This document shows positions 2,853 through 63,569 of a stretch of 64,000 nt of DNA, one piece after another. Source of the DNA: an uncultured virus (IMG/VR IMGVR_UViG_3300027659_000028) (taxonomy: Duplodnaviria > Heunggongvirae > Uroviricota > Caudoviricetes). How positions within the stretch are numbered: position 1 is the first letter of the stretch; the number at the start of each line of letters is the position of its first letter. The stretch lies in IMG/VR virus record IMGVR_UViG_3300027659_000028; one strand, given 5' to 3'. Both the position numbers and the translations under genes were made by a program. The notes beneath the pieces are model-generated. The model had not been told where the DNA came from. It was given only the letters and a program-made list of their open reading frames with translations, and did not search any database.

Positions 2853-2869
2853 GGTTTAGCCGGGCTAAA

Positions 2870-2909
2870 GAAAGAGAGAGCCCGCCTTCGCTCTGGACGA
2901 AGACGGGCC
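2870..2909 (-). terminator. probable intrinsic terminator
   Basis: GC hairpin gcccgccttcg/cgaagacgggc followed on minus strand by a pyrimidine/T tract. Confidence 0.55.
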
Positions 2910-2916
2910 GGTTGGA

Positions 2917-3201
2917 TTACGTCGCAGTGCGATACCAGATGCCGCCGACAGCCTTGCAGGTGCCGGAGGTGTTCACAGCCACGGTTGCCAGCCCGACAAG
3001 AGTGTCGGGTGCGGTGACACCAAAAGTGGCTGTGCCGGATGTGGATACAATGGTAAACTCGTTCTTTTTCCCTTTGGAAGAAGGAAGAGTGTAGGTCGCG
3101 GTAGCAGTAGTCACCGTGACCTTACGACTAAGAGTTGCAGCGGCCCCAAGGGTGCTGATCTTCTTGTTGTAAGTGGTCAAAGACGGAACGATTTGTTTCA
3201 T
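2917..3201 (-). CDS. small Thr-rich structural protein (possible capsid decoration protein)
   Basis: MKQIVPSLTT... 94 aa, beta-rich composition, directly downstream of the capsid gene. Confidence 0.55.
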   Translation of the reverse strand: MKQIVPSLTTYNKKISTLGAAATLSRKVTVTTATATYTLPSSKGKKNEFTIVSTSGTATFGVTAPDTLVGLATVAVNTSGTCKAVGGIWYRTAT

Positions 3202-3227
3202 GATGATTTTAAGTAGGCCCGTTAAGC

Positions 3228-3263
3228 AGAAAACCCCGGCCCGGATGGGCGTCCGAACCGGGG
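3228..3263 (-). terminator. intrinsic terminator after the major capsid gene
   Basis: minus strand ccccggttcggacgcccatccgggccgggg followed by tttt. Confidence 0.65.
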
Positions 3264-4784: not shown

Positions 4785-5049
4785 AATTTTAGGTGGTTAT
4801 CGAGATTTGTTTAGCCCGGCTAAAGACGCATGGCGTCAGGTTGGTTAATGCCGGAAAAATGGAAAACAGAGCTGACGCATGGGCGCTTGCTCAACGGATG
4901 CTTTCTAACTAGGACGATAACGCACGAACTGGCGGACTAGGACCTTCTTTAGAACACGCCTTGTCGTTGTGTTCGGGAAGGTTTTGCCCTAATCCGCCAG
5001 AGGAGTCAACTACCAATGTTGAGAAATCTTGAAATTCCTCAAATCTTTA

Positions 5050-6258
5050 TTAATTCGTGAAGGCATAGTCGGCGGCCATCGCCTCCATGAAGTCCTTCGG
5101 CTTATTGCCGTCGGGCTTGGTGGCTTGCACCGAACCACCTGCTTTGGCGGCGGTGCGGACGCTCTTGACGTCTTCCTTCTCATACACGGACAGGCGCTTC
5201 TTGAGGGCGACCAGTTCTTTCATCGCGTGGGGCAGGGCGGACCCGGCGAACGCGGCGAACGCCATGTCATTTGCTTTAGCCCGGCTAAAGTCAATCGCCA
5301 GCCCCTTGGAGACCAGTTCCTTGAACTTGGGCGTCTCGCCGTCCTCGTCGACAAAACCGGGGATGACTTCCTTGTATTTGTCCCAAATCGACTTCTGGAG
5401 GGTTTGGACGCTGACGCGTTGGTCGGCCAGCAGCTTGCGCTCGGACTCGACGCGCTGAATTTTCTGACGCTCCAGCTCCTGCTCGGCGTTGGCCATCATC
5501 TGCTCGCGCTTCTCGACGAGGTCGCCAAACTTCTCGCCAAAAGACAACACCTTGGATTGGATGACAAGGGACGCCTCGCCGAAGTGGGTGGACATGAGTT
5601 CTTCTTGAACCACCGGGTCGCGCTCCTTGATGATTTGGCGGAGGATTTGGGGATCGAGCTGAAGGCGCTCCGAAAGCTGGTCGGCTTGGGTGAAGATGGA
5701 CGCGGCGGGCTGCACCACCTCGCGCTGGTAAACGTCTTCCGACTCCACCTTGAGCTTGGCGCTTTGCGAGCTGACGTCGGCAAGACGGGCTTTAAGTCCT
5801 TCGATCTCGGAGGTTTTCAACTCAAGCTCTTGCAGCTTGGCTTGCACCTCGGGGGTGACGGAGGATTGTTTGGCGGCTTTGAGTTCGGCCTTGAGGGCGC
5901 GGAACTTCTCACCGGCCTTGGCTTCCATCCCTTTCACCTCCTCCTCGGTTTGCTTGTCGAAAGCCTCCTCGTTGAAGTCGCCTTCCTTGACTGGCTCCTT
6001 GGTCTCTGTGGGCGTCTCTGGCGCGTCGGAGAAGAAGTCCTCCTCAATGACAGGGATGGTGTCTTCCGGCTCGTCCTTGGGCTCGTCAGAAGCTTGTGAG
6101 ACGGGTGTTACAGACTCGGGCTCGACATCCGGTGCGGAAGGTTGGGCTTCCTGACCAGCCTGCGGGCCGTCAAAAAACTTGTCCATTGCGGCCATGATGT
6201 CGCCATCGGGATTGCCCCAGTTTTCCGGGGCCAGTTCGTTTGTGTTTTCTTCAGACAT
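5050..6258 (-). CDS. capsid scaffolding protein (probable)
   Basis: 402 aa, acidic Pro-rich N-terminus, long coiled coil, between portal and capsid. Confidence 0.65.
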   Translation of the reverse strand: MSEENTNELAPENWGNPDGDIMAAMDKFFDGPQAGQEAQPSAPDVEPESVTPVSQASDEPKDEPEDTIPVIEEDFFSDAPETPTETKEPVKEGDFNEEAFDKQTEEEVKGMEAKAGEKFRALKAELKAAKQSSVTPEVQAKLQELELKTSEIEGLKARLADVSSQSAKLKVESEDVYQREVVQPAASIFTQADQLSERLQLDPQILRQIIKERDPVVQEELMSTHFGEASLVIQSKVLSFGEKFGDLVEKREQMMANAEQELERQKIQRVESERKLLADQRVSVQTLQKSIWDKYKEVIPGFVDEDGETPKFKELVSKGLAIDFSRAKANDMAFAAFAGSALPHAMKELVALKKRLSVYEKEDVKSVRTAAKAGGSVQATKPDGNKPKDFMEAMAADYAFTN

Positions 6259-6676: not shown

Positions 6677-6691
6677 GAATCTTTAGCCGGG

Positions 6692-9016
6692 CTAAACTTG
6701 CGTGGCCTTGAGGCGTTGGAGCTTGGCCTGCGCCTCGGCGTCCTTGGTGACCAGTCCGCTCATCGCCTTCTGGGCTTCCGCCACTTGCTTCCATTCCCCG
6801 GCCTTTTTGATGTTCTCCAGCTTGAGTAGGCCAATTTGCATTTCCTGCTGCATCTTTTGGCGGTGCTTCATGTCGCTCACCTGCATCTCTTGCTGGGTTT
6901 TCTGTTGTTGCTTCTGATCTTCGCTGAGCTCTTGCGGCTGGCCACCTTGTGGCTCCTGACCCTCTCCCTCTTGCGCCGCCTTGTTGATCATCTTCAAGCC
7001 GTTGACCACAATTTCGCCCACCTGTTGCACCGCTTGCTGGTGCATGTTCAGCTCAGGCTGCACGCTCTCGTGCACCACCGTGATTTCCAAGGTGGCGACG
7101 CAGTGGTCGTAAAGCATCTGGTGCTCCATGGTCCATTGCATGAGGTCCACCTGCCCCTCGTCCACACCCTGAAGACCTTCCTTGAGCTTGTTGATGTGGA
7201 TGGGGAGATGCACCATGTGGAGCTGACCGTCCTTCGGGTCCATGTAGTCGCCTTCAAGAAGTTGGAAGTTTTCCAAGGTGGCAATCGAGTCGTCGTAAGG
7301 AATCCGTGTTTCGTTCGGTGTTCCGGCGTAGCGGTCGGCCAAGTCTACCCCACCCAACATGATCAGGCGGTCGTAGTCGAAATTCTTGCGGCCCACCGCG
7401 TCCCACGTCGAATAACCTTGCTGGATTTGATCCATCAGCATGATCCGTGACGCACGTGATCCGGTGCCAATGATCCGGGTGGCCTGCACCCGCTTGAAGT
7501 CGATTTGCTTGAAGACGCTCTCAGGCACGCCACGGGCCACGCAGCGGGCCTTCATCTCGCGCACGCGGGCCGCAGCCTGCTTGTCCTTCTGCCTCACCGT
7601 GAACGCCCGACGCACCTTCTCCTTGGTGATTTTGTCGTAAGGACCGTAGAACAACGTGACAGCGAAGCTGTTGAGCTTGTTGATGAAATCGAGCTTGGAG
7701 CTCACTTCCAACTTGGTCTGACGGCTCTTGTCGTCGTTCATCATCATGTCGCCGGAAGCCAATCCGCCGGTCGCCCGGTTCAGGATGGAACGCGTCTCGT
7801 TGATGGCGGGCATCAAGGCGTTGTTCAAATTGATCCCCACCTGACGGTCGGGCATCTTCATGGTCGGCGGGATCATGATGGCCGAGCCGGAGTCGATGAG
7901 CATCATGTCCTGCTCGTCTTCCGTGGAAGCTGGCTGGAGAATCAACGACGACCCGACCCGGGCATTATCGAGCATCTTGCAATGGAGGATGTCCCCGGCG
8001 TTGCACAGCTGGAAGATCAAATATCCCAAGCCGCGCACCGTGTAGAGCCGCCCGCCGTTACCGACGCTGAAAGGAAAAATCTGGAACGCCTGATCCACCG
8101 AATCGTAGTGGCCGGGTGATTTGAAGATGAACTCCTCGGTTCCGCCCTCTTGGTTGGACAAAGAGTTTTTGGCGGAGATGTAATAAGACCAGCGCCCGTC
8201 AAACTCCCTCACCCACGAATGAATGACGGCGACCTCCTCGCACTGTGAATCGACGTAAATCTCGTTGGCCTTGATCTGGCGCTGCATCTCCTCCCAGTCG
8301 TTCCAGTCGGACTTGACCTGACGGGCACTTTGAAGGATGGCCTTGCGGATGGAAGCTTCGTTCCAACCACTGCCGCCAATCTTGCCAAACAACTCGGTGA
8401 CGCCGTAAGAACCCAGCGAGTGGGTTTGTTCGGTCTTGGAGCTGACGATGCCGCTTTTGCGCGGAAACTTGAAATGGTCGAGACCCGCCACCGAATACTG
8501 CATTGTCTCGTTGTCGTCGAAATAGGCAATGGCCACCCCGTGCTTGACGTAAGTGGCCGCAAGCTGAATGTGCAAGGCCAAGGCCCCGTCATCATCCCTG
8601 TCCATCACCGTGTATTCCTCGGCCAAAATCTGGCTCCACGTCAATGCTTGCTGCTTGTCAACCTCGGGGAGAAGCGGTATGTCAGCCAACACCTTCGGAG
8701 TGGTGTAGATGTCGACGTAGGCAGCTTGCGCCTCGGTCAGAATGGTGGCTCCCTCGCCGGTGGTGATGTTGAAACGGTCGCTCTGACCCTTGTTTTCCAG
8801 CTCGGTGGCGTCGTGTGGCGGCGTATAGTCGGCCAAGCCATCCACCAAAGACCGGTTGAACGAGCTGTCGTTGTCCGCCTCCTTTAGAAGCTCGTAGCTG
8901 TTGCGGGCGGCGGCGGGTGAACCCAACCTCTCCTTCGGCTCCTCCAGCGTTTCGGCGTCGAGGGTTTTCAAGTCGTCAAGCGACTTCTCCGATTCGCGGA
9001 AGAGGGAGGTGGTCAT
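6692..9016 (-). CDS. portal protein (probable)
   Basis: 774 aa, downstream of terminase, Gln-rich coiled-coil C-terminus as in P22-type portals. Confidence 0.75.
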   Translation of the reverse strand: MTTSLFRESEKSLDDLKTLDAETLEEPKERLGSPAAARNSYELLKEADNDSSFNRSLVDGLADYTPPHDATELENKGQSDRFNITTGEGATILTEAQAAYVDIYTTPKVLADIPLLPEVDKQQALTWSQILAEEYTVMDRDDDGALALHIQLAATYVKHGVAIAYFDDNETMQYSVAGLDHFKFPRKSGIVSSKTEQTHSLGSYGVTELFGKIGGSGWNEASIRKAILQSARQVKSDWNDWEEMQRQIKANEIYVDSQCEEVAVIHSWVREFDGRWSYYISAKNSLSNQEGGTEEFIFKSPGHYDSVDQAFQIFPFSVGNGGRLYTVRGLGYLIFQLCNAGDILHCKMLDNARVGSSLILQPASTEDEQDMMLIDSGSAIMIPPTMKMPDRQVGINLNNALMPAINETRSILNRATGGLASGDMMMNDDKSRQTKLEVSSKLDFINKLNSFAVTLFYGPYDKITKEKVRRAFTVRQKDKQAAARVREMKARCVARGVPESVFKQIDFKRVQATRIIGTGSRASRIMLMDQIQQGYSTWDAVGRKNFDYDRLIMLGGVDLADRYAGTPNETRIPYDDSIATLENFQLLEGDYMDPKDGQLHMVHLPIHINKLKEGLQGVDEGQVDLMQWTMEHQMLYDHCVATLEITVVHESVQPELNMHQQAVQQVGEIVVNGLKMINKAAQEGEGQEPQGGQPQELSEDQKQQQKTQQEMQVSDMKHRQKMQQEMQIGLLKLENIKKAGEWKQVAEAQKAMSGLVTKDAEAQAKLQRLKATQV

Positions 9017-9400: not shown

Positions 9401-9422
9401 GGGTGTTTAGCCGGGCTAAAGA

Positions 9423-11531: not shown

Positions 11532-11762
11532 AATGGTTTAGCCTGACTAAAGAGTCTTGGGCGTGTTTACGTTCATTTGCCACCCATAGTCAAGCGTTCT
11601 TGATTTTCTGCCTGATAAAACACCTTGACTGTCAGGCTAAGTTGATTATTTAGGTGATGTAAGCAGGGCTGTAAGTCATTGATCCCGCTTCAAAAACAGT
11701 CCTCTTTTTTTTCAAAGGACATGTTTTGTTTCGAAATTTGGAAGCACAAACAACCTGAAATC

Positions 11763-13803: not shown

Positions 13804-13824
13804 ATTGTTTTAGCCTGACTAAAT

Positions 13825-14478: not shown

Positions 14479-14861
14479 ACCAACCTCTTACATGCAACAC
14501 ACCCTCACTGTCAAGCCTTCCTTCCATCACACCCTCTTTAGCCGGGCTAAAATTTTTTTATTTTTCTGGATGGGTTTTTTCATAAGTGACTGAAAATTAA
14601 TGTTTTTTTCACGATGAACCCATACTGTCCTTCTCTTCTGTGTGTAGCGATGGGGTGTTGAGGTGACACCCGTGGCCCCCTCTGAGGCTCTGTGAGCGTC
14701 AGTGAGGAGCCTACGCTACAGCCTGTGCCTTGCACCCTGTGCCTGCACTGCACACCCCTGTGTGCCACCCACTCTCAGTAGCCACTGCATCACGTTGATG
14801 TAGCCTACCACCTGAGCCAACACCAGCAGCGTAGCTCACTGCACTATAGAGACACACACAT

Positions 14862-48900: not shown

Positions 48901-51900
48901 GTAAACGAACGACCGTCATTCTCGCTGATGCTTTCAAGGAACGCCTTTACGGCCTTCTTCGTGTCATCGCTCAACACTCCGGCGGAGTCGTTGTAGGCCA
49001 TGACAATCCCTTCGATCTTGTGGATGGCACCGGCAAGAGCCGCTTGGGAGACGCGGCGAGACATATCCACCTTCTTCGTCCCGTCCGCTTTCATGTCGTT
49101 GCGGATGCCGTCGAGAAACACCTGCATCTTGCGGGTGAACTCATTGGAGAATGTCTTGGCAGCTTGATCCTTGGTCAGCGTCTTGCCTTTAGTCAGGCTA
49201 AACTCGTCCGAATTGAAACTCTCGCCCTTGATCCCATCCATGGTGTCCATGAAGTAGGAATGGTCGTCGGCTGCAATAGCCAGAGCGTGCGAAGCTATGT
49301 GCCCTAAAACCGTGTTGGAATTGCGCTTGGTCACCCTACTAGGGAAAGACCTCATAAGCTGCTCACGGGCCGTTGTGGCCACCATGATGACGTCCTGCCC
49401 TTCCTGACTGAACAACGAGCCAATCTTCTCCGACCGCTCCTTCATGCTCTTGGGCATGTTGAGGATGGTGAGACGGGTTTGCTGGTTGGGGGTGAGCAGT
49501 TGGAACTCAGCGCTCGCAGGGTCCACCAGCATCGCAACGTGCTCCGCTTCAAGACCGCGCATCATCGCTTGCTCCGCATCCGACCTCGCTTGTCCCATGT
49601 TGTCCCTCAAAACCACCTCCTCCACCTCGGTCATTTTGATCGCTTGGCGAATCACCTTGAGTGGGTTGAAGTTTTGGAAGTTGTCTTGGGTGTTGCGGGC
49701 GATCTTGTAGTTGTCGTCGATGTGGTCTTTGGAAAGGTTGGTCAACGCGTTGAGGACCGCCGTCTCCTTGATGTAGTGCTCTTTTCTACGAGCCTTGATC
49801 TCCGCGTCGGCCATCGACTCATCCGAAGATAGGTCATTCCATTTCGTCTTGTCACCACCTACGGTGTTGGTTCCGTCAGCGTTCTTGCTCTCCGTAAATT
49901 CAGGCGTGAGGAAGAGATGGAAGCCAATGGTGCGTGAAACAGGCTCAACCCCCTCCGACACCAACACATCCCCCTTTGTCACCCGACCCACACCAATGTC
50001 CCCCTTGAAGAACGACTGCCCGACGTAGGAGCCACCGGTGTAGTTCTCAACCTTGGAAAGTTCTGCGTTCACCGCACGGAGGTCTTTCTCCACCCGTGCG
50101 ATTTGACGGTCCAAGACGCGAAGCTTTCCAGCCAAGACCACCGACTCCGCCTTGGCGAGTTCGGCGTTCTCCCTGCTCATCGCGTTGCTCATCACATCCA
50201 CGCTGAGCTTCTTGCCGTTGCGCTTGCCGTTCTTGTCGGGAAGAGCGCTCTCGGTTCCGGCCCAATACTTCCTGACGTTCTCGGCGTTGAGGACAACAGC
50301 CTCGGCACGGGTTGTCTTTAGCCCGGCTAAAACCTCCTCGAAGCGGGCCTTGTTGTCTTCATGGCTCTTCACCAAAGCGCGGGCTTCACGCTCGGCAATC
50401 TCCATGGCGTTGCGCGGAAGCGCCACCTTCAGGTCGGCGATCAACTGGTCATTGACCACCACGTCCAATTCCTGATGACCAAACTTCATGTCTGCCATCG
50501 AATCGTTCGGCTGGTTGTGAGTCTTGTTCTCAGCCGCCTTGGCAAGCAACGCGTTCTTGATCGACAGCGTCATTTGCTCTTCAACCATCGCCTCAACACT
50601 TCCCGTGTTGTAGAGAAGTCCGGCGTTGATCCGCTTGATCCGTGTCCCGTAAAACCCGGAGGTCAGACGCGTGCGCCCGTTCGCGTTCGGCATGGTCAGC
50701 GTCAGAGCCGATCCGACGTAGATGCGTGCCACCTTTTGCATCCGGGTCAATTCCTTGGCCGGGCCAGTCGACTTGTCCTCCTTGGAGTTGGTCTTAATGA
50801 CAGGACTGGAAAGCATTTGAAGCTCCTTGTTGTTTTTGTCAGTGTAAACCCGCTTCCCTTGGTCCCTTAAAATCTCATTCGTGCTGCGACCTTTGCCGTC
50901 AGCGCGGGTGCGGAGCTCATCCAAGAACGCGTCGCTCTCCACTCCGTTGAATTGTTTGCCAGCAAGGACGATGGAAGCAAGGGCGTTGTAGAGGAGGTTG
51001 TCGCTCCTGTCGTTCTGGCTGAAGTCGGCTTGAGACATGACGGTCCGGGCCTTGTTCTCTTCCTCTCCAATCTCATTCATTTCCCGTTGGAATTCATCCA
51101 GCTCGGTATTATCGAACAATCCTGAAAGCTCATCATTCCTTTCCGTGGCATCATCAATCTCGATCATTGCGTCCGGGCTGGACGTGCTCGCATTTTCCTC
51201 GTCCATTTCATCCTCTTCAGAATCGACAGGTTCCTCTTCAACCTCGTAAATAGAGTTTTCGGTTTCATCACCAAAGCGGCCCGGATCATCCAGCTTGCTT
51301 TGACGGATCGACCAGATGGCTTTCATCAGGTCGTCCTGAATCTGGACTGGAAGCGTGGTTTCCAGCTTATCCTCCCTCGTCTTGAACGACTCGTCCAAGA
51401 ACGTCTTGGCTTTGTCATCTGTAAGGAACGCGGAGATGGTGATGATGGCGTCCGCCGTGGCAGGCTCAATGTCAGGAAAAGACAGGCTTCTTGAGACAAT
51501 GTCAAAGTCGGCGCGAATCGCCGCCATCCTGTCCAAAGCATCCAAGACTTGCGACTTGTTTGCGACAAACGTCCGTTTGCCCGGCTGTGAGCGGCGTGTG
51601 ATCACACGACCCTCAACCACTGCCACCGGCTTTAGCTCAGTATCAATCTTTAAGGCCAGTTCAATCAACGTCGTCTTCACCGAGGGGTCGTTCTCCGCCG
51701 AGATGGAAAGCAGCTGGGAAATGACACTACGGGCTTTGTCTTTGGAGACATAGGGTCCGTTCTGGTTCAACGGAAGAATGACAACGTTTGGCGTGGCGGG
51801 TGTCTTGGCCTTCTTGTCAGCGGGTTTGCCTTTGAAGATTTGAACGCCCAAACTCTGCAGTCCATTGCGGTTGGCGACGTCCGACTGGATGTGGGCGACA

Positions 51901-54900
51901 ATCGTCCGACCGGCAAGGTTGTCCACAAGATGGTCGATGATCGCATTGCCTGTCCCGTGTCCCATTCCAAGACGGGAGTCCTTGAACCAGAAGTTCTCAC
52001 TCACCATCGACTCCTTGATGGCCGCTGTGATGCGCTCCGACTCTTCAGGGCTGACGAACGGGTTGCCGTTCTTGATCGCCTCATACGCCACGGCGACATC
52101 GTCTTGGTTCTTGAACCGGTCCGCTTCCACCACCTCGCGCTCAAACTTCATCTTGAATTCAAGCAGGTCCATGATGAACCGCTCGGAATCCGTGAAGCGA
52201 TAGCCGTTGGTCTCGGACATCTTGTTGCCGTATTCGCTGAGGAACGCCGTGTAAATCTGCCCGTGCATTTCGTCGTTGGTGTGACCCACGGCAGGGAATA
52301 GGCCTTTCAACCCTCTCTTCACCAGCTCTTCCGTCATCGCGCCATTGAACGCGTTGAACAACTCGCGGTTGACCGCTTTCTGATCATACGGGTTGGCTTC
52401 GTTGAAATCCAAGTCCTCGTTCATCCGATCTTCCATTTCGCGGATGTCGTTGTCGCTGATGCGTGGGACATCGAGACCCGTGGCCGGATCAGTGACCATG
52501 CCGCCAAATGATCTCATGCCTGTCGGATTCAACGCTTCCCTACGCTCGCGCTCGGCAATCACCTGCTCGGCATTGAACCAGCCAGCATGACGCTCGGCAC
52601 GCATGACGTCGAAGTGGAACTGCTGGCCGTCGGCAGACGAGCGACCGTTCGGTCCGTTGCTTCCAATGAACATCGCCGCAGACGTCACGCTCATCGCACG
52701 GTTGACCGCAGGACGACCAAAGGCACGCTCCGCGCTCTCACTCGGGGTTGACGCCCGACCTTCGTTGTAGGTGTCGTTGTAGCCCTCCATGGTAGGTGAG
52801 CTGGCGTTCATGAAGGAGTTGGCGACACGAGGATCGTCAGGGCTTCCAGAGAAATCGTTTGGATTGATCACCTCATCCGTGGAGCGAAGTTGGCCATCTG
52901 ATCCGGGTTTCACCCTCACGTAAGGCATCCGGCCCTCTCCATAGCTGCTCCGGTTGATGCTGTCGTAAAGCTCGGACGCCCACGTCGATCCGTAGATGTA
53001 ATTCCGGTCTTCTTCAAAATACTTCAACGTCCACGCCAACCGGTTCACAACCCGAGCGTCCGACGTCATCTCCTTGAGCTTCAGGAACGCCTTGTTGTCC
53101 GGCTCGAAGGCGGGGTCGCGCTGGTAGCGGTTGCCTTCGTATTCCACGTTTCTGTGCCACTTGTCGTTCTGGAACGCCTTCAGAGACTTCTTCAGCAGCT
53201 TGACGCCACGAGTCGCGTTCCTGAATCCCCACGGAAGGAATTGGCTCCCCTGTCCGCTGACGATTGTATTGTAGAGCTTGTTGTTGATGTCGGCCACCTT
53301 CATGGTCGAAATCTTAATCAAGTTCCCATTCTCCAGCTCAAAAAAGTCCATGAAGTCCACCTTGTCGGAAGGCATCTGGAACACCCCGTTCACGTTGTAT
53401 TTCGACTTGGTCTTGTAGTGCTGCTTGAGGTCGTTCATCACCACCCTCATTTCGTTCTGAAGGTAGGAGTCCAAGCCTCCGGTCATCTCAAACGATGTCT
53501 CGCCCGTCAGGCTGTTCCTTGTTTCCTGAAGCTTTCCAAACAACCCTTGAAGCATCGGAGTCATCCGGCCTGCAAAGCTTTGCTCGCCACCCACGGTGTC
53601 CGTGATCCGGCCTTCATACTTGCTCTTGATCTTGGCGGTCCATGAATTGATCCCCTGATACGCCTTGAGCAGAGCCAAGATGGACCCCGACTTGTCGGAC
53701 TTGCTCAGCGCGTGCTTTGCGGAGCCAAACTCCTCGCCGTCAAAATCAGGGAACGCCGAGTCCAACGACTCAAACTCCTCCTGATCGTTGTCGTTGACCT
53801 CTTTGTTGAAAAGGAAACCGCCCGTTCTTTCGTAGTCGCTGGCGCTGGTTCCAATCTCAAGCTTTCCAAGCTGGGAACTGACCCAGTAATTCAGGAACAG
53901 GTTCTTGCCCACGAAGTCGGCGTTCGACTCCATCGTTTGTTGGTAAATCTCAAGACCAGCGTTCCAGTCCTCTTGCTCTTGCGTCAGAGTTTTCCCGGCC
54001 TTTGGCCATACCGCTTTGGCTCCGTAACTGTAAACGCTCTCGCCAGCCATCAGTCCCTTGAAGACATCATCCGACCCATAAGCGTGCTCCAACGTATCAG
54101 ACAAGCTCTTGAACTCAAGCGAGCCAGCCTCACCCGTCGGGACGTTCAAGTCCGCCAAGTTGATCCCGAAGTCCTCGCTGCTCTTCCAAAACTCACCGAC
54201 GGAACGGTTTTTGACGAATTGGATGGAATCGTTGTAGTCGTCAACGGCTTGCTGAAACTCCATGTATTCCCTGTAAACCGCTTGGGCCTTGGCGCGGGCT
54301 TCAGGGTCTTGGTTCTCGTCACGCTCAAAGACGTTGTCCTGACGCTTATGGCTGATTTCCTTCTTCTTTTGAGAAGCGTCAAACTTTTCTTGAGAATAAG
54401 CACGGAGCTTTTCAATCATCTCCGTCATCTCCGCCACCTTGGACTCCTGTTCCTTTAGTCGGGCTAAAGAGTCAACCACTGGTCCTGAGAAGGTTTTCGC
54501 AAACCGCTCGTGCAAATCACCGGTAATGTAGTTCTCGGAGACAAGGAGGGATTGGAGAATAGACGTCTTGTAAGACTCAAGAGCCGCCGCAAATTCTTCT
54601 GGATTGGCCCGTTCAAGACGCTCACGTGGAGACCACTCAACAGACTGATCCACACTTGCAACCAAGGGAGACAACGCGATATTTGTCTGATCGGTGGACT
54701 TGCTTGGTCGCTTGAGATTTCCAACCGGGCGAGCAACGTCGTCAATCTCAAGATTCGTGGAGACCTTGTATTTGCCGGGCTTGAGATTCTTCCTGAATCC
54801 AACGCTGGTCAAACGTCCCCACTTCAAGAGCTCTTTGATTGACGCCGAGCCACTGACCTTGGTGTCGATGTCTTGAACGGCACGAATGGCGTGAGCATAT

Positions 54901-57900: not shown

Positions 57901-60539
57901 GGACTGAGATACTCGGTAGTGACGGTGCCGTCTGGATTGACCGTTTCCTTCTTGGCGGCGACGTAGGTGGCCAAGCTCCGTCCTTCCCCGGACGGGACAG
58001 ACATCGGAGTGATGGTGACGTTGTTGGCAATCTTCAATGGCGTCGCACCTTCGGTCGGGACCATGGCGATATCCGCCCGCCATTTCTTGCCAGTGGGGGC
58101 GGTGATGCTGGAAGAACTCAAGACATCGCCAAGTGTGCCCACTGGAGGGGGTGTTGCTGCGACTCCCTGTGCCGCAGGAGGCTCTTGAATTGGATTGGTG
58201 GCACTTGGTGCCGCAGGTGGCGTCGTGGTGGCAGACGTGGGCTCTGGTGCCACGGAAGGGATTGGAGCTGTTGTGGGCGTTACAGCGCCAACGAAGTCCG
58301 CGTTGATCGACTGGCCGCGTGCTAGAGCCAACAACGCCTTTGACTTCTGCTCCACCGACACCTTGTCGTCTGGCATCGCAATGTATTCCGCCATGTTCTT
58401 GGCTCCTGACGCAGTGCCCTTGAACTCGTATTGGTCCAAACTCTGGAAAGTTTCCACCTTGGTCTTTAGCTGGTCCCACGCGGCCTTCTGGATGTCGTAG
58501 CCCTCGCTTTTGCCGAAGGTTCCCTTGGCATCCATCACCGTCCCGGACGCATCCCCCATCGCACCACCCACCGCACCCAAGATACCGGCCTTGACGTATT
58601 CCTTCCACTTGGTGCCGATGTTGCCCCAAACGTCTTCGGTCCACGTCTTGGAGTCGTCGAGCATCGAGCTGATGACGTCGGAGATGATCTCGTCAGAGGA
58701 CTCCTCCACCGCTTCAGCGCCCATGTTGCCGAGCACTCCAACACCTTTCAAACCAAGCTGTTTGGCGGACGTGTTCATCACGCCTTTCAGATCCTTGGCG
58801 AACTGCGTGCGAAGAGAGGCTCCCGCATCACCACCCAAGTCGGAGATGGTTTTCTGGACGGCCTCCATGCTCTCACGAGTGAGGGCCTTGTTCTTGAGAT
58901 TCTGGATGAACCCACCACCCACTGCGCCATCACCCATCCCGAACGCCTTGCCCATACCGGGGGCGACACGGTTCATGACACTGGTGGCGATGAACGCACT
59001 GAGACCGTCTGACGTCGCTTCGATGTTCGCCGCCTTTAACGCCTTCTCGCGGTCGCCGTGAAGGTTCATCTCTTGGTTGAACGTCTTGCCGAAGCTAGTA
59101 CCTGACGCCTGAAGCGAGCCAAGCCACACCTCCGGATCGGTGCCAATAGATTTTAGCCCGGCTAAAGTCTTTTCCCCGAGAGTGCGTGTTCCGGCAGCGG
59201 CAGCGGCTTCGGTCTTGGCGACCGTGGACAGCAGGACACCCGCCTCGTTGACCGCATAACGACTCGCGCCCGCAGCCCCAACCTTGGTCAAACCCTTGCC
59301 CGCCAACGCGCCCATCCCACCCATCGCGACGAACGAGCCAATCTGTCCGGTGAGCTCGGTCAAGTCGCGGCGATTGATGTCAACGCCAAACAACTCGAAC
59401 GCCTTACCATTGGAGTAAGCACCCGCCGTGTCTTCGGCCAAACCTCCCCAAGCTTCCGCAGGCGACGTGTAGTTGCCCGCAGACGCCAGCCACAAGGCAC
59501 CAGTCCCCGTCGCCATCATCGCGTCGCGGAACGTCGCCGCGATCTCGGAGCCGACGCCGTAGGAGTCCTTGTCCATCCGGTCCTTGTTGGCCTTCAAAAA
59601 CTCGTAGCCACTGGCTCCGGGCTTCTTCATCGCCTCCATGAACTCGTCCCGCAGCGGAGAGCTCACGATGGAGCCCAAGACGCCCGCGTCCGCCGCAGCG
59701 AACTGGTTGACCGTCTTGCCGATGTTCTCCTCCACCTTCGAACGGTAGTCGATGAGCATCATCTTCTTGTCCGCAGCGGAAAGGTCCAAACCGTTGATGG
59801 CGGCTTCCATCTTGTCGATTTGGTTGAAATTCTTCGGGTTCATCACATACTGATCCCTGACCTTACCAATCATCACCTCGTCACCCAACGACGACGGGTC
59901 AAAGGTGCGCTTCGCCGACTCGGCGTAGAACGCTTTCTCCATCTCCTTGTTCTCAGGATCAAGGTGGGCCTCGCCGTTCTTCACCTCGGCGTTGGCGAAG
60001 TCGGTGTATTCCTTGTAGGTTAAAGACGGGGACTCCCCCTCCTTGGTGATCTTCTGCCTCTCTTGGATGTAAGCTCCCATGTCCGAGAACCGGTCGGGCT
60101 GCTTCTCTCTCTTCTGTGTGAGAATGTTTTCAAGAGCAGGGTTGACCTCCCACTCCCGAGTTTCAGGGTTGCGTCTCACGCCACCACCCGGCAATGAAGC
60201 CGCCACTTCCAAATACTCTTTAGCCCGGCTAAAACGTTCCTTGCCATCCTCCGTCAATCCTCCAGCAGTATTGAACATGGGGACCTCAGCCTCCACCTCC
60301 TCGGAGACACCCGCATCGTTTTTGCGCCGAACCAGCCCTTTGATTTTTTTGGTCTTGTCCGCTTCTTCAGTTGTCGCCCAATCCAAAAACCCTTCCCCTG
60401 CCGTGGCTTTTTGATCCAAGCTGTCAATGTATTGAGCCGAAAGGAGGTAGTCGTTCAAAGAGGACGTCAACTCGTTCTGCACCGGAGAGTCGGTGGGAAA
60501 AAGAGACTCGTCGCCGGTGTTCAGATTGTTGAAATCCAT
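45993..60539 (-). CDS. giant (4848 aa) probable internal virion / ejection polyprotein
   Basis: single 14.5-kb ORF, last of three consecutive genes in the T7 gp14-16-like position; Gly/Ala-rich hydrophobic helices near the N-terminus; EELTH zincin-like motif. Confidence 0.75.
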   Translation of the reverse strand: MDFNNLNTGDESLFPTDSPVQNELTSSLNDYLLSAQYIDSLDQKATAGEGFLDWATTEEADKTKKIKGLVRRKNDAGVSEEVEAEVPMFNTAGGLTEDGKERFSRAKEYLEVAASLPGGGVRRNPETREWEVNPALENILTQKREKQPDRFSDMGAYIQERQKITKEGESPSLTYKEYTDFANAEVKNGEAHLDPENKEMEKAFYAESAKRTFDPSSLGDEVMIGKVRDQYVMNPKNFNQIDKMEAAINGLDLSAADKKMMLIDYRSKVEENIGKTVNQFAAADAGVLGSIVSSPLRDEFMEAMKKPGASGYEFLKANKDRMDKDSYGVGSEIAATFRDAMMATGTGALWLASAGNYTSPAEAWGGLAEDTAGAYSNGKAFELFGVDINRRDLTELTGQIGSFVAMGGMGALAGKGLTKVGAAGASRYAVNEAGVLLSTVAKTEAAAAAGTRTLGEKTLAGLKSIGTDPEVWLGSLQASGTSFGKTFNQEMNLHGDREKALKAANIEATSDGLSAFIATSVMNRVAPGMGKAFGMGDGAVGGGFIQNLKNKALTRESMEAVQKTISDLGGDAGASLRTQFAKDLKGVMNTSAKQLGLKGVGVLGNMGAEAVEESSDEIISDVISSMLDDSKTWTEDVWGNIGTKWKEYVKAGILGAVGGAMGDASGTVMDAKGTFGKSEGYDIQKAAWDQLKTKVETFQSLDQYEFKGTASGAKNMAEYIAMPDDKVSVEQKSKALLALARGQSINADFVGAVTPTTAPIPSVAPEPTSATTTPPAAPSATNPIQEPPAAQGVAATPPPVGTLGDVLSSSSITAPTGKKWRADIAMVPTEGATPLKIANNVTITPMSVPSGEGRSLATYVAAKKETVNPDGTVTTEYLSPPQAATALRTVKQVIKPKDASMAKRWSDKFSTNANDTTYHDEWSEQDGANPTTDAEITVTGEEDLADVRDAEGNSGGEAASAGASLKTSSAGAVASSEGLSDNEIDLSPSEVSPVKEAPSATPQTPLNIGDAVPQLPNELKDGREYTKKRMAEGLTREQAAVELSKKRKSFEAQILEQASQAEEIIDEQGVVWWSIGDGKFATGGSHAPRTVLTIFGGKVTKLKTARKETNSPDAPTTGPTPSATPAEETKKPTPPTDENQSETDAKRKADADVEAKRQGLLNEGAAEESTPAAPATPTNNDREVVRNKLGSDIQRGLPPLGENDPNYIHDNGVFKPVAKNGKTYVTDEAIDNELSKGGGTRSVAIKSMQARLAGHSKADALKTQDKTADNAASTVYQDVVYVADPELIKGGDDSIGGNWTMDVSETKEVVYSYRPPTGSSLSLSIGEVVAIEGKPDEFLQVTNVVNGRWEFSKKTTAEAAGDLITDKGLINQGNKYTRSLLANVAKEVQKHFKSIAKGDITPENMEKLFAKVMKVVSPKKTFKVVKEEMSGDSFLYAEPNVDSTEYGTIKVDYAKMAVQLAKIYRTANTNDSASNTLLGMDAARVISAWIDEELTHLIGFKIFSADELRSFYKAILDLPKNKDGSDHEFTRLLKETLKERFPTGTNGRPLDASIDDADMDDSVGADAKELEITYTVATELIRKLHQMATKGTTTERDTALSRQLQDAIYGDAFDKANETQGSLSKSPLRVIGHMIRRYAERVRNILWMKWQTGTLPPQAREMLASMNRAYRNEGIQGDVDYGYDEATKEAERRRDVYEKAFKEEVGKIARLQSKTAMKLRSISRQFGHMNLSQSLVVDHETMTLDLHPRIKAHIAEYKTLTDEEMEQVEGFLFDLNDKGGKAPAYQQAMTVAFMKQQVMEMRRDSLSFNPLDLFDTIRDDNNPDLSPTQRKEANAAKRMLLWRTILDGMPAEESSTRPLTPLMEARGLAVDEMNRTANEAYAHAIRAVQDIDTKVSGSASIKELLKWGRLTSVGFRKNLKPGKYKVSTNLEIDDVARPVGNLKRPSKSTDQTNIALSPLVASVDQSVEWSPRERLERANPEEFAAALESYKTSILQSLLVSENYITGDLHERFAKTFSGPVVDSLARLKEQESKVAEMTEMIEKLRAYSQEKFDASQKKKEISHKRQDNVFERDENQDPEARAKAQAVYREYMEFQQAVDDYNDSIQFVKNRSVGEFWKSSEDFGINLADLNVPTGEAGSLEFKSLSDTLEHAYGSDDVFKGLMAGESVYSYGAKAVWPKAGKTLTQEQEDWNAGLEIYQQTMESNADFVGKNLFLNYWVSSQLGKLEIGTSASDYERTGGFLFNKEVNDNDQEEFESLDSAFPDFDGEEFGSAKHALSKSDKSGSILALLKAYQGINSWTAKIKSKYEGRITDTVGGEQSFAGRMTPMLQGLFGKLQETRNSLTGETSFEMTGGLDSYLQNEMRVVMNDLKQHYKTKSKYNVNGVFQMPSDKVDFMDFFELENGNLIKISTMKVADINNKLYNTIVSGQGSQFLPWGFRNATRGVKLLKKSLKAFQNDKWHRNVEYEGNRYQRDPAFEPDNKAFLKLKEMTSDARVVNRLAWTLKYFEEDRNYIYGSTWASELYDSINRSSYGEGRMPYVRVKPGSDGQLRSTDEVINPNDFSGSPDDPRVANSFMNASSPTMEGYNDTYNEGRASTPSESAERAFGRPAVNRAMSVTSAAMFIGSNGPNGRSSADGQQFHFDVMRAERHAGWFNAEQVIAERERREALNPTGMRSFGGMVTDPATGLDVPRISDNDIREMEDRMNEDLDFNEANPYDQKAVNRELFNAFNGAMTEELVKRGLKGLFPAVGHTNDEMHGQIYTAFLSEYGNKMSETNGYRFTDSERFIMDLLEFKMKFEREVVEADRFKNQDDVAVAYEAIKNGNPFVSPEESERITAAIKESMVSENFWFKDSRLGMGHGTGNAIIDHLVDNLAGRTIVAHIQSDVANRNGLQSLGVQIFKGKPADKKAKTPATPNVVILPLNQNGPYVSKDKARSVISQLLSISAENDPSVKTTLIELALKIDTELKPVAVVEGRVITRRSQPGKRTFVANKSQVLDALDRMAAIRADFDIVSRSLSFPDIEPATADAIITISAFLTDDKAKTFLDESFKTREDKLETTLPVQIQDDLMKAIWSIRQSKLDDPGRFGDETENSIYEVEEEPVDSEEDEMDEENASTSSPDAMIEIDDATERNDELSGLFDNTELDEFQREMNEIGEEENKARTVMSQADFSQNDRSDNLLYNALASIVLAGKQFNGVESDAFLDELRTRADGKGRSTNEILRDQGKRVYTDKNNKELQMLSSPVIKTNSKEDKSTGPAKELTRMQKVARIYVGSALTLTMPNANGRTRLTSGFYGTRIKRINAGLLYNTGSVEAMVEEQMTLSIKNALLAKAAENKTHNQPNDSMADMKFGHQELDVVVNDQLIADLKVALPRNAMEIAEREARALVKSHEDNKARFEEVLAGLKTTRAEAVVLNAENVRKYWAGTESALPDKNGKRNGKKLSVDVMSNAMSRENAELAKAESVVLAGKLRVLDRQIARVEKDLRAVNAELSKVENYTGGSYVGQSFFKGDIGVGRVTKGDVLVSEGVEPVSRTIGFHLFLTPEFTESKNADGTNTVGGDKTKWNDLSSDESMADAEIKARRKEHYIKETAVLNALTNLSKDHIDDNYKIARNTQDNFQNFNPLKVIRQAIKMTEVEEVVLRDNMGQARSDAEQAMMRGLEAEHVAMLVDPASAEFQLLTPNQQTRLTILNMPKSMKERSEKIGSLFSQEGQDVIMVATTAREQLMRSFPSRVTKRNSNTVLGHIASHALAIAADDHSYFMDTMDGIKGESFNSDEFSLTKGKTLTKDQAAKTFSNEFTRKMQVFLDGIRNDMKADGTKKVDMSRRVSQAALAGAIHKIEGIVMAYNDSAGVLSDDTKKAVKAFLESISENDGRSFTNIAAAKQWGAGWDVDNMIGFKTEEIFSKVFMEVETDLILQRLTTSMTIHNSKTSLFFMEYLDHHDARMKKRFQKTRAGRQAAIHLRTLLDRGIDGKSGRHGYERSKKVAQEEIAQAAKQVGHNAQDQSIGYFIALLDGLVNAHGLTYAKAFNEWIKQAKTGFAQYDEFAQAQDDYYGKNDISRYWNAGHLDLIRDRELTEKMRSILTSAKVNATFTDDVEARAEVEKIKATLRKNVSSGKEAAVDHYAKTIGDVLGDIDSAMHFTQAMLSKPESADDFATSSKWRDKKLNAYKTTYSSVPMSIAYAGNPAGKEDIRQGEYVSDPMDIVSFDEASFFGGIGHSSRLFDDKSVFRPISVNGLSAPQSLVDDAIYRLNVTPTYEVLRRSIGKVKDVSGQLNIEDSGMLAILEAQKPDPLLPNRELREAEHEHKQNIVAATTALAFVANELEVAIRNDFQTGAVNTGGSETLRFLSSAFIVRSLASVQQITDQSVGPSIGYTLGKLAVGKPGMVKNYFRLVAKYLTDSKFREKARQLVMDNDVMVYYRSLDGREVLRDVTRGQKRYGSKVVKNTLGKAIRTYEKVGEDALDFTIGKMERALATSVFIAELMDHTNVTDENELFKGNVSLQDMDIVNSRLKVNEMFGQSDHSNKAWMFQSRDHSPFVSALWKALTLFSNHTSSTASNMSVQFPQAINPLLRKAGFKKIEVIDEATHKEALENVVATFVQNALFPILKWKVAVSIVSWVIARVFMGDDEDEAVIHAQEMANNILAPSEDGNAVANFLKIVAVGKERELFRSDLEPDAAFASALAEIFNKTLLESATMIPVGGVAAGYSPVSNLLEKFITNDAAESIVTMVTNGYRGITGNDEMLEKSRFYFDDDGVMARQYEAGAFENAMGVTAATSAVYDMSSAMKLLAEYNMTDEAASNRMSSASNSAMYALTELAPFMRDARGHFKSVLRKPVKEEKRESY
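57056..57130 (-). CDS. candidate overprinted basic peptide (24 aa)
   Basis: MKTKAKPMPKGKPMPMSKPKGKGC in an alternative frame of the giant gene, C/A-rich start context. Confidence 0.45.
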   Translation of the reverse strand: MKTKAKPMPKGKPMPMSKPKGKGC

Positions 60540-60557
60540 AGGGGTGTGTTGAAAATA

Positions 60558-61892
60558 TTATTTGCGGGTTTTGTCGAATCCAGTGGATGAGGTTTTCAGG
60601 GTTTTCTCGGCAGCGGATCTGACCTTGTCCGCTTTTGCGCTGATCGCTTCAGGTGACCCCGTGAGGTTTTTCGGGTCCTTGTAGAAATCAATCATGATTT
60701 GCTTGATCGCTGAGTTGGCCTTCTCTTCTTTTTCTTGCTGGAACCTTTGGCGGGCCAGCTGGGAATCCCCCTCGCGATCCCCGATCTGACTGTTCGTGTT
60801 GCTTGCGGCAAGATCTGCTTTTTTCCTTTCGCGTTCAAGCTCATCCTCTTTTTGGCGGGCACTAAAGTCCATCCAATCCTTGTCGATCCGGCCAACCAGC
60901 GGACGCATGTGCGCGTTCATCTCGGCCATCTTCACCTTGAACGCATCTTTGGTTGCCGGGTCTTTCATGTCCAAACGCTCCGATGCAATCTTAAGGAGAT
61001 TGTCCGAAAGTGCCTTGCGGGTGGAGGTGGCTTGATAAAGGGACGCGTGAGCTTTCACGGCAGACTCAATCGCCTTGTCTTCAGGAGATCCTTCAGGAGC
61101 CACGTTGCGAGCGTTACCATATTGGATTTCAATCTCCTCTGGAGAAAGATCATTACTTAGGTTCACTCCCTTGCCTTTGAGGCCGTTGATGATGGGTTGG
61201 ATCTGGTCGATGATCTTCTTGTTGTATTTTTCAAGATTGGACGCCTTGCCCAATCCCTCAACCATCATGCCCATCTGCCTGACATCCGAAGCCATGTCGG
61301 GATCATTGCCGTAATGCTGGCCCCATCCAGCCAGCTGGACCGAGAGATCATGATGGTCATCGCTGATTTGACCGGACAGCTGGTAAAGGTTGTTCACCGA
61401 GTTGGAATCGACATCATCTTGTAAAATCTTGTTCTGGCTCGAGAGGAGACGTCCTGACGACAACGCGTTATCCATATTTAAACTAGCAAGCTCTTTCCTT
61501 TTAGGTTCATTGGCATCCCACTCGTCCATGGCGGTTGACTCCGCTTTCATCTTCCTTGCTTTGTGCGTAGATTCCGAAGCGTTGGTCAGGGCGTCTGCCG
61601 CCTCCTTGATCCGCTTGTTGCCGGGATTGCGCATCTGAAGCTGGGCGAGCACCTTGGCGTTGCCCTCGTAGTCGTCAGGAGCAATCCCCATCTTCCTGTA
61701 TTCCTCGTCGAACGCGTCAAACTGCTGGGATTCTTTCTCCTCCTTGGCCGCGTCTCGCTTCATCTTGTCAATCCCAAGCGCTCCAGATTCATTCCCTTGT
61801 CGCAACCTAATCAGGTTCTCTACCGCCATGCTTTCGGGCAGGACGTTAAAAGCGGAGACCGCTGTGTCGTAATCGGAGGAAGAGTAGGGCAT
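60558..61892 (-). CDS. probable internal virion / ejection protein
   Basis: 444 aa helical, directly upstream of the giant gene. Confidence 0.6.
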   Translation of the reverse strand: MPYSSSDYDTAVSAFNVLPESMAVENLIRLRQGNESGALGIDKMKRDAAKEEKESQQFDAFDEEYRKMGIAPDDYEGNAKVLAQLQMRNPGNKRIKEAADALTNASESTHKARKMKAESTAMDEWDANEPKRKELASLNMDNALSSGRLLSSQNKILQDDVDSNSVNNLYQLSGQISDDHHDLSVQLAGWGQHYGNDPDMASDVRQMGMMVEGLGKASNLEKYNKKIIDQIQPIINGLKGKGVNLSNDLSPEEIEIQYGNARNVAPEGSPEDKAIESAVKAHASLYQATSTRKALSDNLLKIASERLDMKDPATKDAFKVKMAEMNAHMRPLVGRIDKDWMDFSARQKEDELERERKKADLAASNTNSQIGDREGDSQLARQRFQQEKEEKANSAIKQIMIDFYKDPKNLTGSPEAISAKADKVRSAAEKTLKTSSTGFDKTRK

Positions 61893-61918
61893 GGGCGTGT
61901 TTAGTCAGGCTAAAGTTA

Positions 61919-63550
61919 TCAGGCGTATCTCTGAAGGAAGTTGGATCGTTCACGGACTTCGTTGATCGGGGCTTGGTAGGCAGCGGCCCGCTGCTGGAGC
62001 TTGTTGTCTATGGAGGCTTGGTCGGGTGATCTTGCCTCTTTTTTAAGGGAATCGTTGGTTTTGCTTATGATACGATTTCCAGTAACACCAGTAGCCATGT
62101 CATCGTAAGTATGCTCTTTTGATCCATACTCAAGATTTTGAGCGACTCCGTCGAGGTAAGCGATCCTGCTTTTTCGAGATTCCTGTTCTTTGTCTGCAAT
62201 CTCAATCTCAGTTTTCCTGTATTCAGCGGACTGTCTTGATGTTTCTTCCTTTTCGATTTGTTCTGGAGACTTGGCTGAAGGAGACTTGATCTTATCCGCC
62301 AAAGCCTTCATGGCGTTGATATTCTCATCGCCAAGACTGGGGAATTTTTCAGAAAAGCTTCTTCGGCTTTCCTCAAGACGTGATTTCTCCGCTTCTTCTG
62401 GGGTTGGCTCCTTAGCGGAAAGCGTCGGCATCCGGCTGTCCGTCTGCGGCTCCGCCAGCTGATCATTGGAGGCTTGATACAGGGGGTCGATGGAGTCGCC
62501 TTTGCCTGTGTTCTTCGACAAAGACGCAACACCTTTGTCAATCTGCTTGAGCATCTGATCCTTGGTTATTCCAAGGCTTTCCCCATAAGCATAAAGCTCG
62601 TCGTTTGGAGTTCCAGAAAGATGTTCTTCAGGGTTTTTTCGGTTTTTGTCCACTGGTGCGCGGCCAAGTTCGAGCAAATCTTTACCGAGCTTCTGTCTCT
62701 TGAAAACATTCGCCTGCTCTTCAATCGCGTTCTTGCGCTTCGTCTCCCACTCCATTGGTGCTGGCTTGCCCTTTCCCGCCCCACCCTGTGCCACAGGAGG
62801 CGTCGTAGCGGGGACCGGGGCACCTTGTCCCACAGGCTCGCTCGGAGCGCTCACAAGGCCATTCTCGTCCGTCGTCGGAGGAGTAATCCTAGTCCCGCCC
62901 GCAGGCGCAGCTGGATAACCATCTACGCGAGTGCCAACCTCCCCAGTGGATGCACCGTCGCGTTCGGGGATGTAGTTTAAATTTGAGCGAGGCTGGGCGC
63001 TGCCGGGACCGTATTTATCGGTGTTCGTAGCGCTTATGGACGGCTTTGCGTTTGAAGTTGGAGTATCAGCTTGTGATGTTCCCAGCTTTGAATTCCCTCC
63101 GTCAGCGGTGGACGTTCCAATTTTCGAATTCGTTCCACCATCAGCCGTAGCGACACCAACATTCTTGTTTACAGCGTCAGCCTGACCGGCAACCACATCG
63201 GCTGAATTCTGTTTGCCTTGGAGCCGTAGGCCCTCTTTCGTGAAGTTGTCCGCCGTTTGACTGTCTTGATTCCGGTTTTGTTCCGCGTCCCTTATTCCGC
63301 GACCGTTGATATATCCCGGCGTGTCTCTTCGATTTTGCTGCTCTTTGGCCGCCGCAATTCTCACGGATGCTGGCTGGCTGGAATCGCGCATCGTCTTCGA
63401 CAGCATCCGGTCAGAAGCAGCCTGATCCATCCTGTCTGCTTTTGCCGCCCGCTCACCAGCGCTTGGGGCCGCCATGCTATACTTCCTGCTTCCCGTTGGC
63501 TTATCCAGCGAGGAGGTTCCGTTCATTCGTCTTCCGTCTCCGAGTCCCAT
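61919..63550 (-). CDS. probable internal virion / ejection protein (low complexity)
   Basis: 543 aa, disordered composition, virion operon. Confidence 0.55.
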   Translation of the reverse strand: MGLGDGRRMNGTSSLDKPTGSRKYSMAAPSAGERAAKADRMDQAASDRMLSKTMRDSSQPASVRIAAAKEQQNRRDTPGYINGRGIRDAEQNRNQDSQTADNFTKEGLRLQGKQNSADVVAGQADAVNKNVGVATADGGTNSKIGTSTADGGNSKLGTSQADTPTSNAKPSISATNTDKYGPGSAQPRSNLNYIPERDGASTGEVGTRVDGYPAAPAGGTRITPPTTDENGLVSAPSEPVGQGAPVPATTPPVAQGGAGKGKPAPMEWETKRKNAIEEQANVFKRQKLGKDLLELGRAPVDKNRKNPEEHLSGTPNDELYAYGESLGITKDQMLKQIDKGVASLSKNTGKGDSIDPLYQASNDQLAEPQTDSRMPTLSAKEPTPEEAEKSRLEESRRSFSEKFPSLGDENINAMKALADKIKSPSAKSPEQIEKEETSRQSAEYRKTEIEIADKEQESRKSRIAYLDGVAQNLEYGSKEHTYDDMATGVTGNRIISKTNDSLKKEARSPDQASIDNKLQQRAAAYQAPINEVRERSNFLQRYA

Positions 63551-63569
63551 ATTTTAGTCAGGCTAAAGG

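Follow-up and report, generated by a model that had tools for sequence, protein, structure and literature searches.

A genome-wide palindrome in an uncultured tailed phage and a candidate KorB-like protein that may read it

Why would a tailed phage keep the same 15-bp palindrome along its whole genome, and which protein would read it? The question is raised by 64,000 nucleotides (nt) of DNA from an uncultured virus of the Caudoviricetes (IMG/VR record IMGVR_UViG_3300027659_000028); this whole stretch is referred to as the window. An exact pattern scan of the window finds 32 matches to the palindrome between positions 2855 and 63567, while 100 dinucleotide shuffles yield 0, which upholds the copy number given in the original prediction. 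Our recount of the three sequence variants (16/14/2) is identical to the earlier tally, and the gaps, previously put at about one site per 2 kb with a maximum near 4.7 kb, measure 1,958 bp on average and 4,698 bp at most. The form of the word is strict. Every TTAG-N5-CTAA in the window belongs to the 32, and a scan allowing up to two mismatches returns no copy of the 15-mer with one mismatch and 2 copies with two (chance mean 0.35). TTTAG-N4-CTAAA and TTTAG-N6-CTAAA have 0 copies each in the window, as does TTAG-N3-CTAA, the spacing of the KorB operator (OB); all window sites are N5. In the asymmetric variants orientation mostly follows the nearest gene: TTTAGCCTGACTAAA lies on the coding strand in 14/16 cases. 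The palindrome array is real, selected and family-wide.

The window is most of the genome of an uncultured tailed phage: a complete relative with end repeats (G002) is 73.9 kb long, and the roughly 10 kb outside the window were scanned only partly, in relatives. The nearest record, G001, matches the right part of the window. Conservation in related phages, which the original prediction implied, is seen in 13/13 closer records read whole and in 15/18 related phage records overall, where the family form is TTTAG-YY-N(0-2)-RR-CTAAA with a centre of 0, 1 or 2 bp according to lineage. Around portal relatives (51–100% identity) TTAG-N5- or -N6-CTAA occurs in all 38 loci, several of which come from the same records and in which single matches may be chance where the locus is AT-rich. 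Counted between TTAG and CTAA, the 5-bp class is found in G002–G004, G006, G009, G010, G014 and G015, the 6-bp class in G012 (15 copies) and G013 (30 copies), both together in G007, G008 and G011, and a 4-bp class in the more distant G548 (10 copies) and G549 (11 copies); spacers are mixed within one genome in G007, G008, G011 and G548. Orthologous sites of the window and G002 are kept, and their differences arise by substitution, not insertion. G550 and G551 have no TTAG site and carry TT(T/G)(T/C)G-N4-C(A/G)(A/C)AA instead, in 7 and 19 copies (simulated means 0.7 and 2.5, an optimistic null as the pattern was picked after their repeats were seen). This alternative 14-bp palindrome is evenly spaced in G551 (P=0.004), and one form of it equals the 4-bp class word bar a single mirrored position. 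G552, with 3 sites over 73 kb, shows no clear replacement word; tandem repeat arrays of 12–15 bp lie at both ends of that record (L503:319-448; L506 near 71.5–72.7 kb).

The sites in the window are as follows; the 15-mers come from the exact pattern scan, with strand given as (.), and gene starts from a custom gene caller. The names portal, scaffold and capsid rest on gene order and size, not on database matches.

Site 1, 2855..2869 (.): 2 nt before the start of a minus-strand tail-fibre-like gene
Site 2, 4810..4824 (.): 25 nt before a 501-aa gene (putative capsid, by gene order)
Site 3, 5275..5289 (.): within a 402-aa gene
Site 4, 6682..6696 (.): gives the stop of a 774-aa gene (putative portal); 5 nt before an 86-aa gene
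Site 5, 9406..9420 (.): start codon 5 nt after
Site 6, 11537..11551 (.): 5 nt before the terminase large subunit start
Site 7, 13809..13823 (.): intergenic
Site 8, 14537..14551 (.): non-coding region
Site 9, 15326..15340 (.)
Site 10, 15586..15600 (.)
Site 11, 16715..16729 (.): directly downstream of the probable terminase small subunit gene
Site 12, 17333..17347 (.): divergent gap between the probable terminase small subunit gene and the plus-strand block
Site 13, 18014..18028 (.)
Site 14, 19488..19502 (.): within a 577-aa gene; the G002 counterpart is one substitution off
Site 15, 21024..21038 (.): intergenic
Site 16, 22155..22169 (.): start codon 3 nt after
Site 17, 25913..25927 (.): stop overlapped; start codon 2 nt after
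Site 18, 29870..29884 (.): within a short gene
Site 19, 31888..31902 (.): start codon 4 nt after
Site 20, 34577..34591 (.): HNH gene on one side, DUF932 gene on the other
Site 21, 36867..36881 (.): 5 nt before the 371-aa candidate reader gene
Site 22, 38407..38421 (.): start codon 3 nt after
Site 23, 42853..42867 (.): TTGACA 11 nt upstream; start codon 2 nt downstream
Site 24, 44278..44292 (.): stop overlapped; start codon 19 nt after
Site 25, 45203..45217 (.): start codon 1 nt after
Site 26, 49188..49202 (.): in frame within a 4,848-aa gene
Site 27, 50317..50331 (.): within the 4,848-aa gene; rare TTA and CTA codons
Site 28, 54454..54468 (.): within the 4,848-aa gene; rare TTA and CTA codons
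Site 29, 59152..59166 (.): within the 4,848-aa gene; rare TTA and CTA codons
Site 30, 60219..60233 (.): within the 4,848-aa gene
Site 31, 61900..61914 (.): 7 nt before a 444-aa gene
Site 32, 63553..63567 (.): before a 543-aa gene

Sixteen of the 32 sites lie at most 30 nt before a start codon, where 4% are expected, 8 are in genes and 8 elsewhere; the distance from 15-mer to ATG peaks at 1–5 nt, and the site upstream of the 86-aa gene recurs in 10/13 records. Gene junctions may be just cheap places for the word, because it holds stop codons and ends A-rich, and a Shine-Dalgarno-like motif precedes only 4/81 window genes; gene leaders across the window are A/C-rich. Spacing in the window is more even than random (coefficient of variation 0.63, P=0.005), and sites are evenly spaced in 9/13 records. 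Five sites lie within the giant 14.5-kb gene, and three of them use TTA/CTA, each about 3% of leucine codons, so that the site codons have a probability of 1e-6 to 1e-3 given the protein. Most relatives' giant genes (14–18 kb) hold several sites too, mostly at different positions.

Is the word read as folded RNA, as a junction or as duplex DNA? Its inner position pairs favour mismatch (CA 97, CG 93, TG 58, TA 28; P=0.006) and also include C-C and G-G. Because the arms are not selected to pair, the pattern argues for duplex DNA read by a protein as two half-sites and not for a hairpin. The original prediction, which is partly supported as a whole, had offered two readings: genome-wide binding sites of a dimeric protein or, alternatively, a recombination boundary between gene modules. 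The former is supported. The latter found no backing: alignment breaks at site-bearing and other gene starts number 10/16 vs 28/65 (P=0.18) in one comparison and 5/11 vs 16/53 (P=0.48) in a second.

Which protein would be the reader? Judging from gene context, conservation and a structural model, it is probably the 371-aa product of a gene with a site of its own. The relevant features are:

371-aa candidate reader, 36887..38002 (+): helical N-terminal domain (1–70), acidic disordered linker, helical domain resembling the ParB/KorB DNA-binding domain and LmbU (~165–295), C-terminal beta domain
TTGACA -35-like hexamer, 36850..36855 (+): 11 nt before the site at 36867
118-aa helical protein, 37999..38355 (+): overlaps the reader stop codon; adjacent in relatives

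The site at 36867 covers the expected -10 of the candidate reader gene's putative promoter, and the 118-aa protein is a possible partner. The candidate gene is present in 9/9 near-complete relatives, which have 16 genes in common, and in G548–G552. A site lies at most 60 nt upstream of it in 7/12 records; among the 16 core genes tested it is the sole non-virion one so marked in more than one record, the others belonging to the virion module. An alignment of 12 members shows a conserved central domain (N229-T230, S251, E255, K281, R284), and the NCBIfam LmbU model (NF038070) matches 5/12 members with a best E of 3e-5, far under the curated cut-off of 125 bits. In the AlphaFold model of the protein (predicted local distance difference test score, pLDDT, 76), the top 14 structural neighbours of residues 165–296 include ParB-parS 6s6h (Z 6.7, root-mean-square deviation (rmsd) 4.6, 110 residues aligned), Spo0J 1vz0 (Z 6.4, rmsd 4.5, 103 aligned), KorB 8qa8 (Z 5.6, rmsd 3.5, 94 aligned), KorB 1r71 (Z 5.3, rmsd 4.0, 97 aligned) and SopB 3mky (Z 5.0, rmsd 4.0, 100 aligned). 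A ParB/Spo0J/KorB-type DNA-binding domain is thus suggestive only.

The rest of the modelled protein is small. All that precedes the helix-turn-helix (HTH) domain is a three-helix domain of 70 residues and a linker modelled as disordered, and no Pfam family, that of the N-terminal ParB/Srx CTPase domain included, is found on the candidate reader or on 30 distant homologues. The small C-terminal beta domain (pLDDT 69) has no clear neighbour (best Z 3.8); the KorB C-terminal domain is not among the matches listed for it, which excludes nothing. No ParA/IncC partner is seen among the 81 open reading frames (ORFs) of the window, the genome part outside it having been scanned only partly and in relatives. 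At 50% identity this modest family has 157 representatives, of which 49 have E <1e-30. Homologues P0180–P0193 are 500–1,240 aa long, with long N-terminal repeats of an unnamed domain without a Pfam match, and no loci were found for the most diverged homologue group. The domain has no match among annotated phages and chance-level matches only among plasmids. In the G550/G551 homologue the helix and second motif are kept and the third motif is changed; the palindrome there is different too.

We put at about 0.5 the probability that the candidate reader is a clamp-less KorB-like global regulator or organiser acting through a genome-wide operator grid, a reading built on sequence comparison and modelling. 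A phage-encoded dimer, most likely of the 371-aa protein, would bind the palindrome on double-stranded DNA, each subunit reading a TTTAGYY half-site via a ParB/KorB-type HTH domain. The centre of 0, 1 or 2 bp would be set by dimer geometry and drift between lineages. Since no CTPase clamp domain was found, KorB-style sliding is not expected of this protein; lacking a clamp, it would have to rely on a large number of sites, in keeping with the even grid, and the phage would maintain one every 2–5 kb instead. The site on its own promoter would cap the level of the reader by repression, those at gene junctions or in mid-gene would serve as roadblocks or anchors that damp or order transcription, and the occupied grid would organise the infecting genome and mark phage DNA apart from host DNA.

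Several observations weigh against this reading. Most sites are not classical operators, because a -35-like hexamer stands at a conserved offset ahead of only 5/160 sites preceding start codons (that of the candidate reader gene among them), and no general -35 enrichment ahead of sites was found. Even spacing does not reach significance in G007, G008, G012, G014, G548 and G549. On the side of the protein, Z scores of 5–6.7 (<8) are common for helical folds and the Rubisco factor Raf1 ties with a Z of 6.4; Foldseek matches are not significant (Spo0J E 0.61, Noc E 1.0), profile comparison detects no sequence similarity to R751 KorB (probability 0.2%), and the window's 371-aa protein itself has no match to the LmbU model. 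The switch of palindrome in G550/G551 is one event. K281 is not conserved in L441 and L469, although both carry sites, whereas G552, with just 3 in 73 kb, retains it. Covariation does not single out the candidate because its tree needs no fewer site-class changes (4) than those of portal (4), capsid and primase (3 each). The DUF932, 577-aa, 118-aa and 86-aa proteins are also universal and may be readers.

The closest known counterpart of the proposed grid is the KorB/OB system of IncP plasmids (RK2, R751). KorB recognises TTTAGC(G/C)GCTAAA (PMC13768133; PMC11790492) and, according to the excerpts of PMC13768133, acts on far-off promoters because CTP drives it to slide there from a small number of sites. 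The phage word has the same outer half-site, TTTAGC/GCTAAA; in both cases exact palindromes are spread between and inside genes (about a dozen over a 50–60 kb replicon in the plasmids; 11 KorB-operator copies in 50 kb in R751), a site lies near the reader's own gene, and the ParB-type HTH of KorB has a putative counterpart in the model of the phage protein. Unlike OB, with 3 bp between TTAG and CTAA, the phage words have 4, 5 or 6 bp there; the phages carry 12–32 sites, and the candidate has no detected CTPase domain and no sequence similarity to KorB. The replicon, too, differs in being a phage; no integrase is seen in its window, and ParA/KorA matches are found in 0/81 window ORFs. The phage system is KorB/OB-like in site form and layout, yet falls outside that system by its missing CTPase domain, its other centre and its lack of sequence similarity. 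The KorB-operator half-site, the lineage-varying spacer and the plausible ParB/KorB-type reader had escaped the earlier reading of this DNA.

Other known repeats are less close. Cluster O mycobacteriophages carry >30 invariant copies of the 17-bp palindrome TGTTCGGNNNCCGAACA over a genome of about 70 kb, for which the excerpted text gives no function (PMC4351075). It likewise has a high copy number with intergenic and intragenic sites, few near promoters; it differs in sequence and host phylum, and its reader is unnamed in those excerpts, while the sites of our phage clade are tied to start codons and their spacer and half-site evolve across the clade. Cluster A stoperators and Cluster K start-associated sequences are also many genome-wide repeats, oriented with transcription and near start codons, but stoperators are described there as asymmetric and as serving lysogeny (PMC4351075), whereas the phage word is palindromic. 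LmbU, whose family (NF038070) gives the weak profile match across the HTH region of the reader, binds a palindrome as a homodimer via an HTH modelled on Spo0J (PMC6510168, in part); it binds CGCCGGCG at a few Streptomyces promoters, and the phage reader has extra N- and C-terminal domains. The LmbU model has no match in Corndog or R751. A literature search, with few subscription papers and with supplements outside its scope, found nothing relevant on the motif or on a KorB-like grid in phages.

Does the word also occur in host DNA? The probable terminase small subunit has Atlas neighbours, few of them with a phylum, that weakly point to a host in Verrucomicrobiota, as does an element in Akkermansiaceae described below. 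The original prediction counted a match to a described host transcription-factor box or repeat against itself; the word is not an abundant host-chromosome motif in these candidate genomes, being without a match in 126/151 Akkermansiaceae and 386/401 Verrucomicrobiota genomes, while the 25/151 and 15/401 that have any mostly have one. A reversed control word matches these genomes equally often or more. Repeated chromosomal copies, as expected of parS, matS, Noc, LysR or DtxR-type sites, were not found, a result valid only if the host is in Verrucomicrobiota. Among 120 stretches from scattered taxa listed in a scan of GTDB, only one, in Akkermansiaceae, held five copies (L315:3001-4265, G016 contig 94): five sites within 1.3 kb, in 5- and 6-bp forms, the main variant being that of G013. 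The element has integrase and HTH_17 genes and is inserted at a tRNA; the contig ends there. All five sites are grouped on the downstream side of a 353-aa gene, which has no Pfam match and one weak relative in 301 genomes; two of them are followed about 30 nt on by near-identical terminator-like hairpins. No homologue of the reader was found in the genome of the element, and 3/301 family genomes have distant ones only. A metagenome scan for further satellite-like elements gave 119 loci, 7 with at least 2 sites and 2 with phage-family matches, none resembling this element, which is a single case.

In the main rival explanation, in our view unlikely, the 371-aa protein is a replication initiator or restart factor. 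The sites would then be origins or restart points scattered along the genome and used by the phage primase-helicase, and the adjacent 118-aa protein would load the helicase. The pair does lie between the DUF932 and primase-helicase genes in the window and most relatives, the G550–G552 homologue is at most ~1.5 kb from a primase-helicase match, and no DNA polymerase is found among the 81 window ORFs. Satellites often keep iterons downstream of a gene such as the 353-aa one, as the sites of the Akkermansiaceae element are placed; its lack of a Pfam match leaves a replication role unproven. The repeats used by initiators are usually clustered next to an AT-rich tract, but the phage sites are single and evenly spread, and both pair and sites are present in G011 and G012, which lack this primase-helicase. 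There is a slim chance that the sites are self-recognition marks by which a virion or packaging protein (terminase small subunit, a portal-side protein or the giant injected protein) would choose, condense, protect or pull in phage DNA. Even spacing, maintained within a 14–18 kb gene at positions mostly differing between genomes, fits a density-dependent mark, as do the near absence of the word from sampled host-phylum chromosomes and its five copies in an integrated satellite-like element whose genome has no detected reader gene. The concentration of sites at start codons speaks against such a mark, and the giant protein is only 26–48% identical between relatives, with no database match. The probable terminase small subunit was rejected as reader: its putative recognition helix varies freely while the half-site is fixed.

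Slimmer still is the chance that a host protein (LysR-, DtxR- or ParB-type, or the KorB-like protein of a resident plasmid) reads the site and is exploited or titrated by the phage. In its favour, the 13-bp core agrees with the T-N11-A form of LysR sites and with ATTAG-n5-CTAAT, the E. coli GcvA box as given in the excerpts of PMC5002191, an unrelated integrated element carries both spacer forms, and spacers are mixed within four phage genomes. The GcvA box, however, fits the 5-bp class only, the 4- and 6-bp classes break T-N11-A, distant relatives switch palindrome, and most sampled genomes lack the word, an argument that holds for a host in Verrucomicrobiota, another phylum being possible. 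Slimmest is the chance of a hairpin or RNA signal (a virion RNA polymerase promoter, processing or translation) or of a recombination boundary. The peak 1–5 nt before ATG, the scarcity of Shine-Dalgarno-like motifs, the asymmetric variants that follow the coding strand and a giant virion-type protein would suit an RNA signal; against it stand the favoured inner mismatches and the mid-gene sites in both orientations. The giant protein has no RNA polymerase motif or match, a very diverged enzyme being possible, and an N4-type hairpin promoter with a paired stem and a virion RNA polymerase was not found in the window. For a boundary, the enrichment of breakpoints is not significant.

The genes around the grid are those of a tailed phage: terminase large subunit (9765-11531), primase-helicase, ERF, exonucleases, HNH, DUF932 and tail-fibre-like genes, with no integrase among the 81 window ORFs scanned. 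There is no cultured relative, the best terminase matches being at 24–32%, and no prophage relative of the portal in GTDB. The 4,848-aa ORF (45993-60539), probably an injected virion protein, has no Pfam, PHROG or PDB match, and relatives' versions have 4,650–5,980 aa. The 577-aa protein (18169-19902), universal in the family and the first large gene of the plus-strand block, has no family or structure match. The DUF932 protein (34660-35667), a candidate alternative reader or partner, is conserved like the portal (56–81%) in relatives with TTAG sites and was not found in G550–G552; it has no solved-structure match. The HTH protein at 16753-17280 is the probable terminase small subunit; sites flank it on both sides, and it lies 5 kb from the large subunit gene. 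The protein at 26208-26783 has Xre-type HTH and sigma-70 region 4 matches and is absent from the relatives compared.

What would the grid mean for these phages? Lytic-looking phages with palindromes along the whole genome are on record, but with neither a reader nor a function, as in the excerpted account of Cluster O (PMC4351075). The repeat here comes with a named candidate protein, natural variants of specificity and spacer and a host-integrated element sharing the word, features that make it testable with one purified protein and a few oligonucleotides. A bolder proposal, which we advance tentatively and hold to be somewhat unlikely, is that the clade turned a CTPase-less ParB/KorB module into a self-marking grid, with half-site and spacer evolving with the protein (four site classes) and site density replacing clamp sliding; phage DNA would be treated unlike host DNA, and integrated satellites would carry copies of the word with which they hijack or block the protein. 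If true, the ParB/KorB story would extend to phages and to a clamp-less form, centres of 3, 4, 5 and 6 bp around one half-site would provide a natural series for the co-evolution of dimer geometry and operator, and the family would offer orthogonal repressor-operator pairs for Verrucomicrobiota tools.

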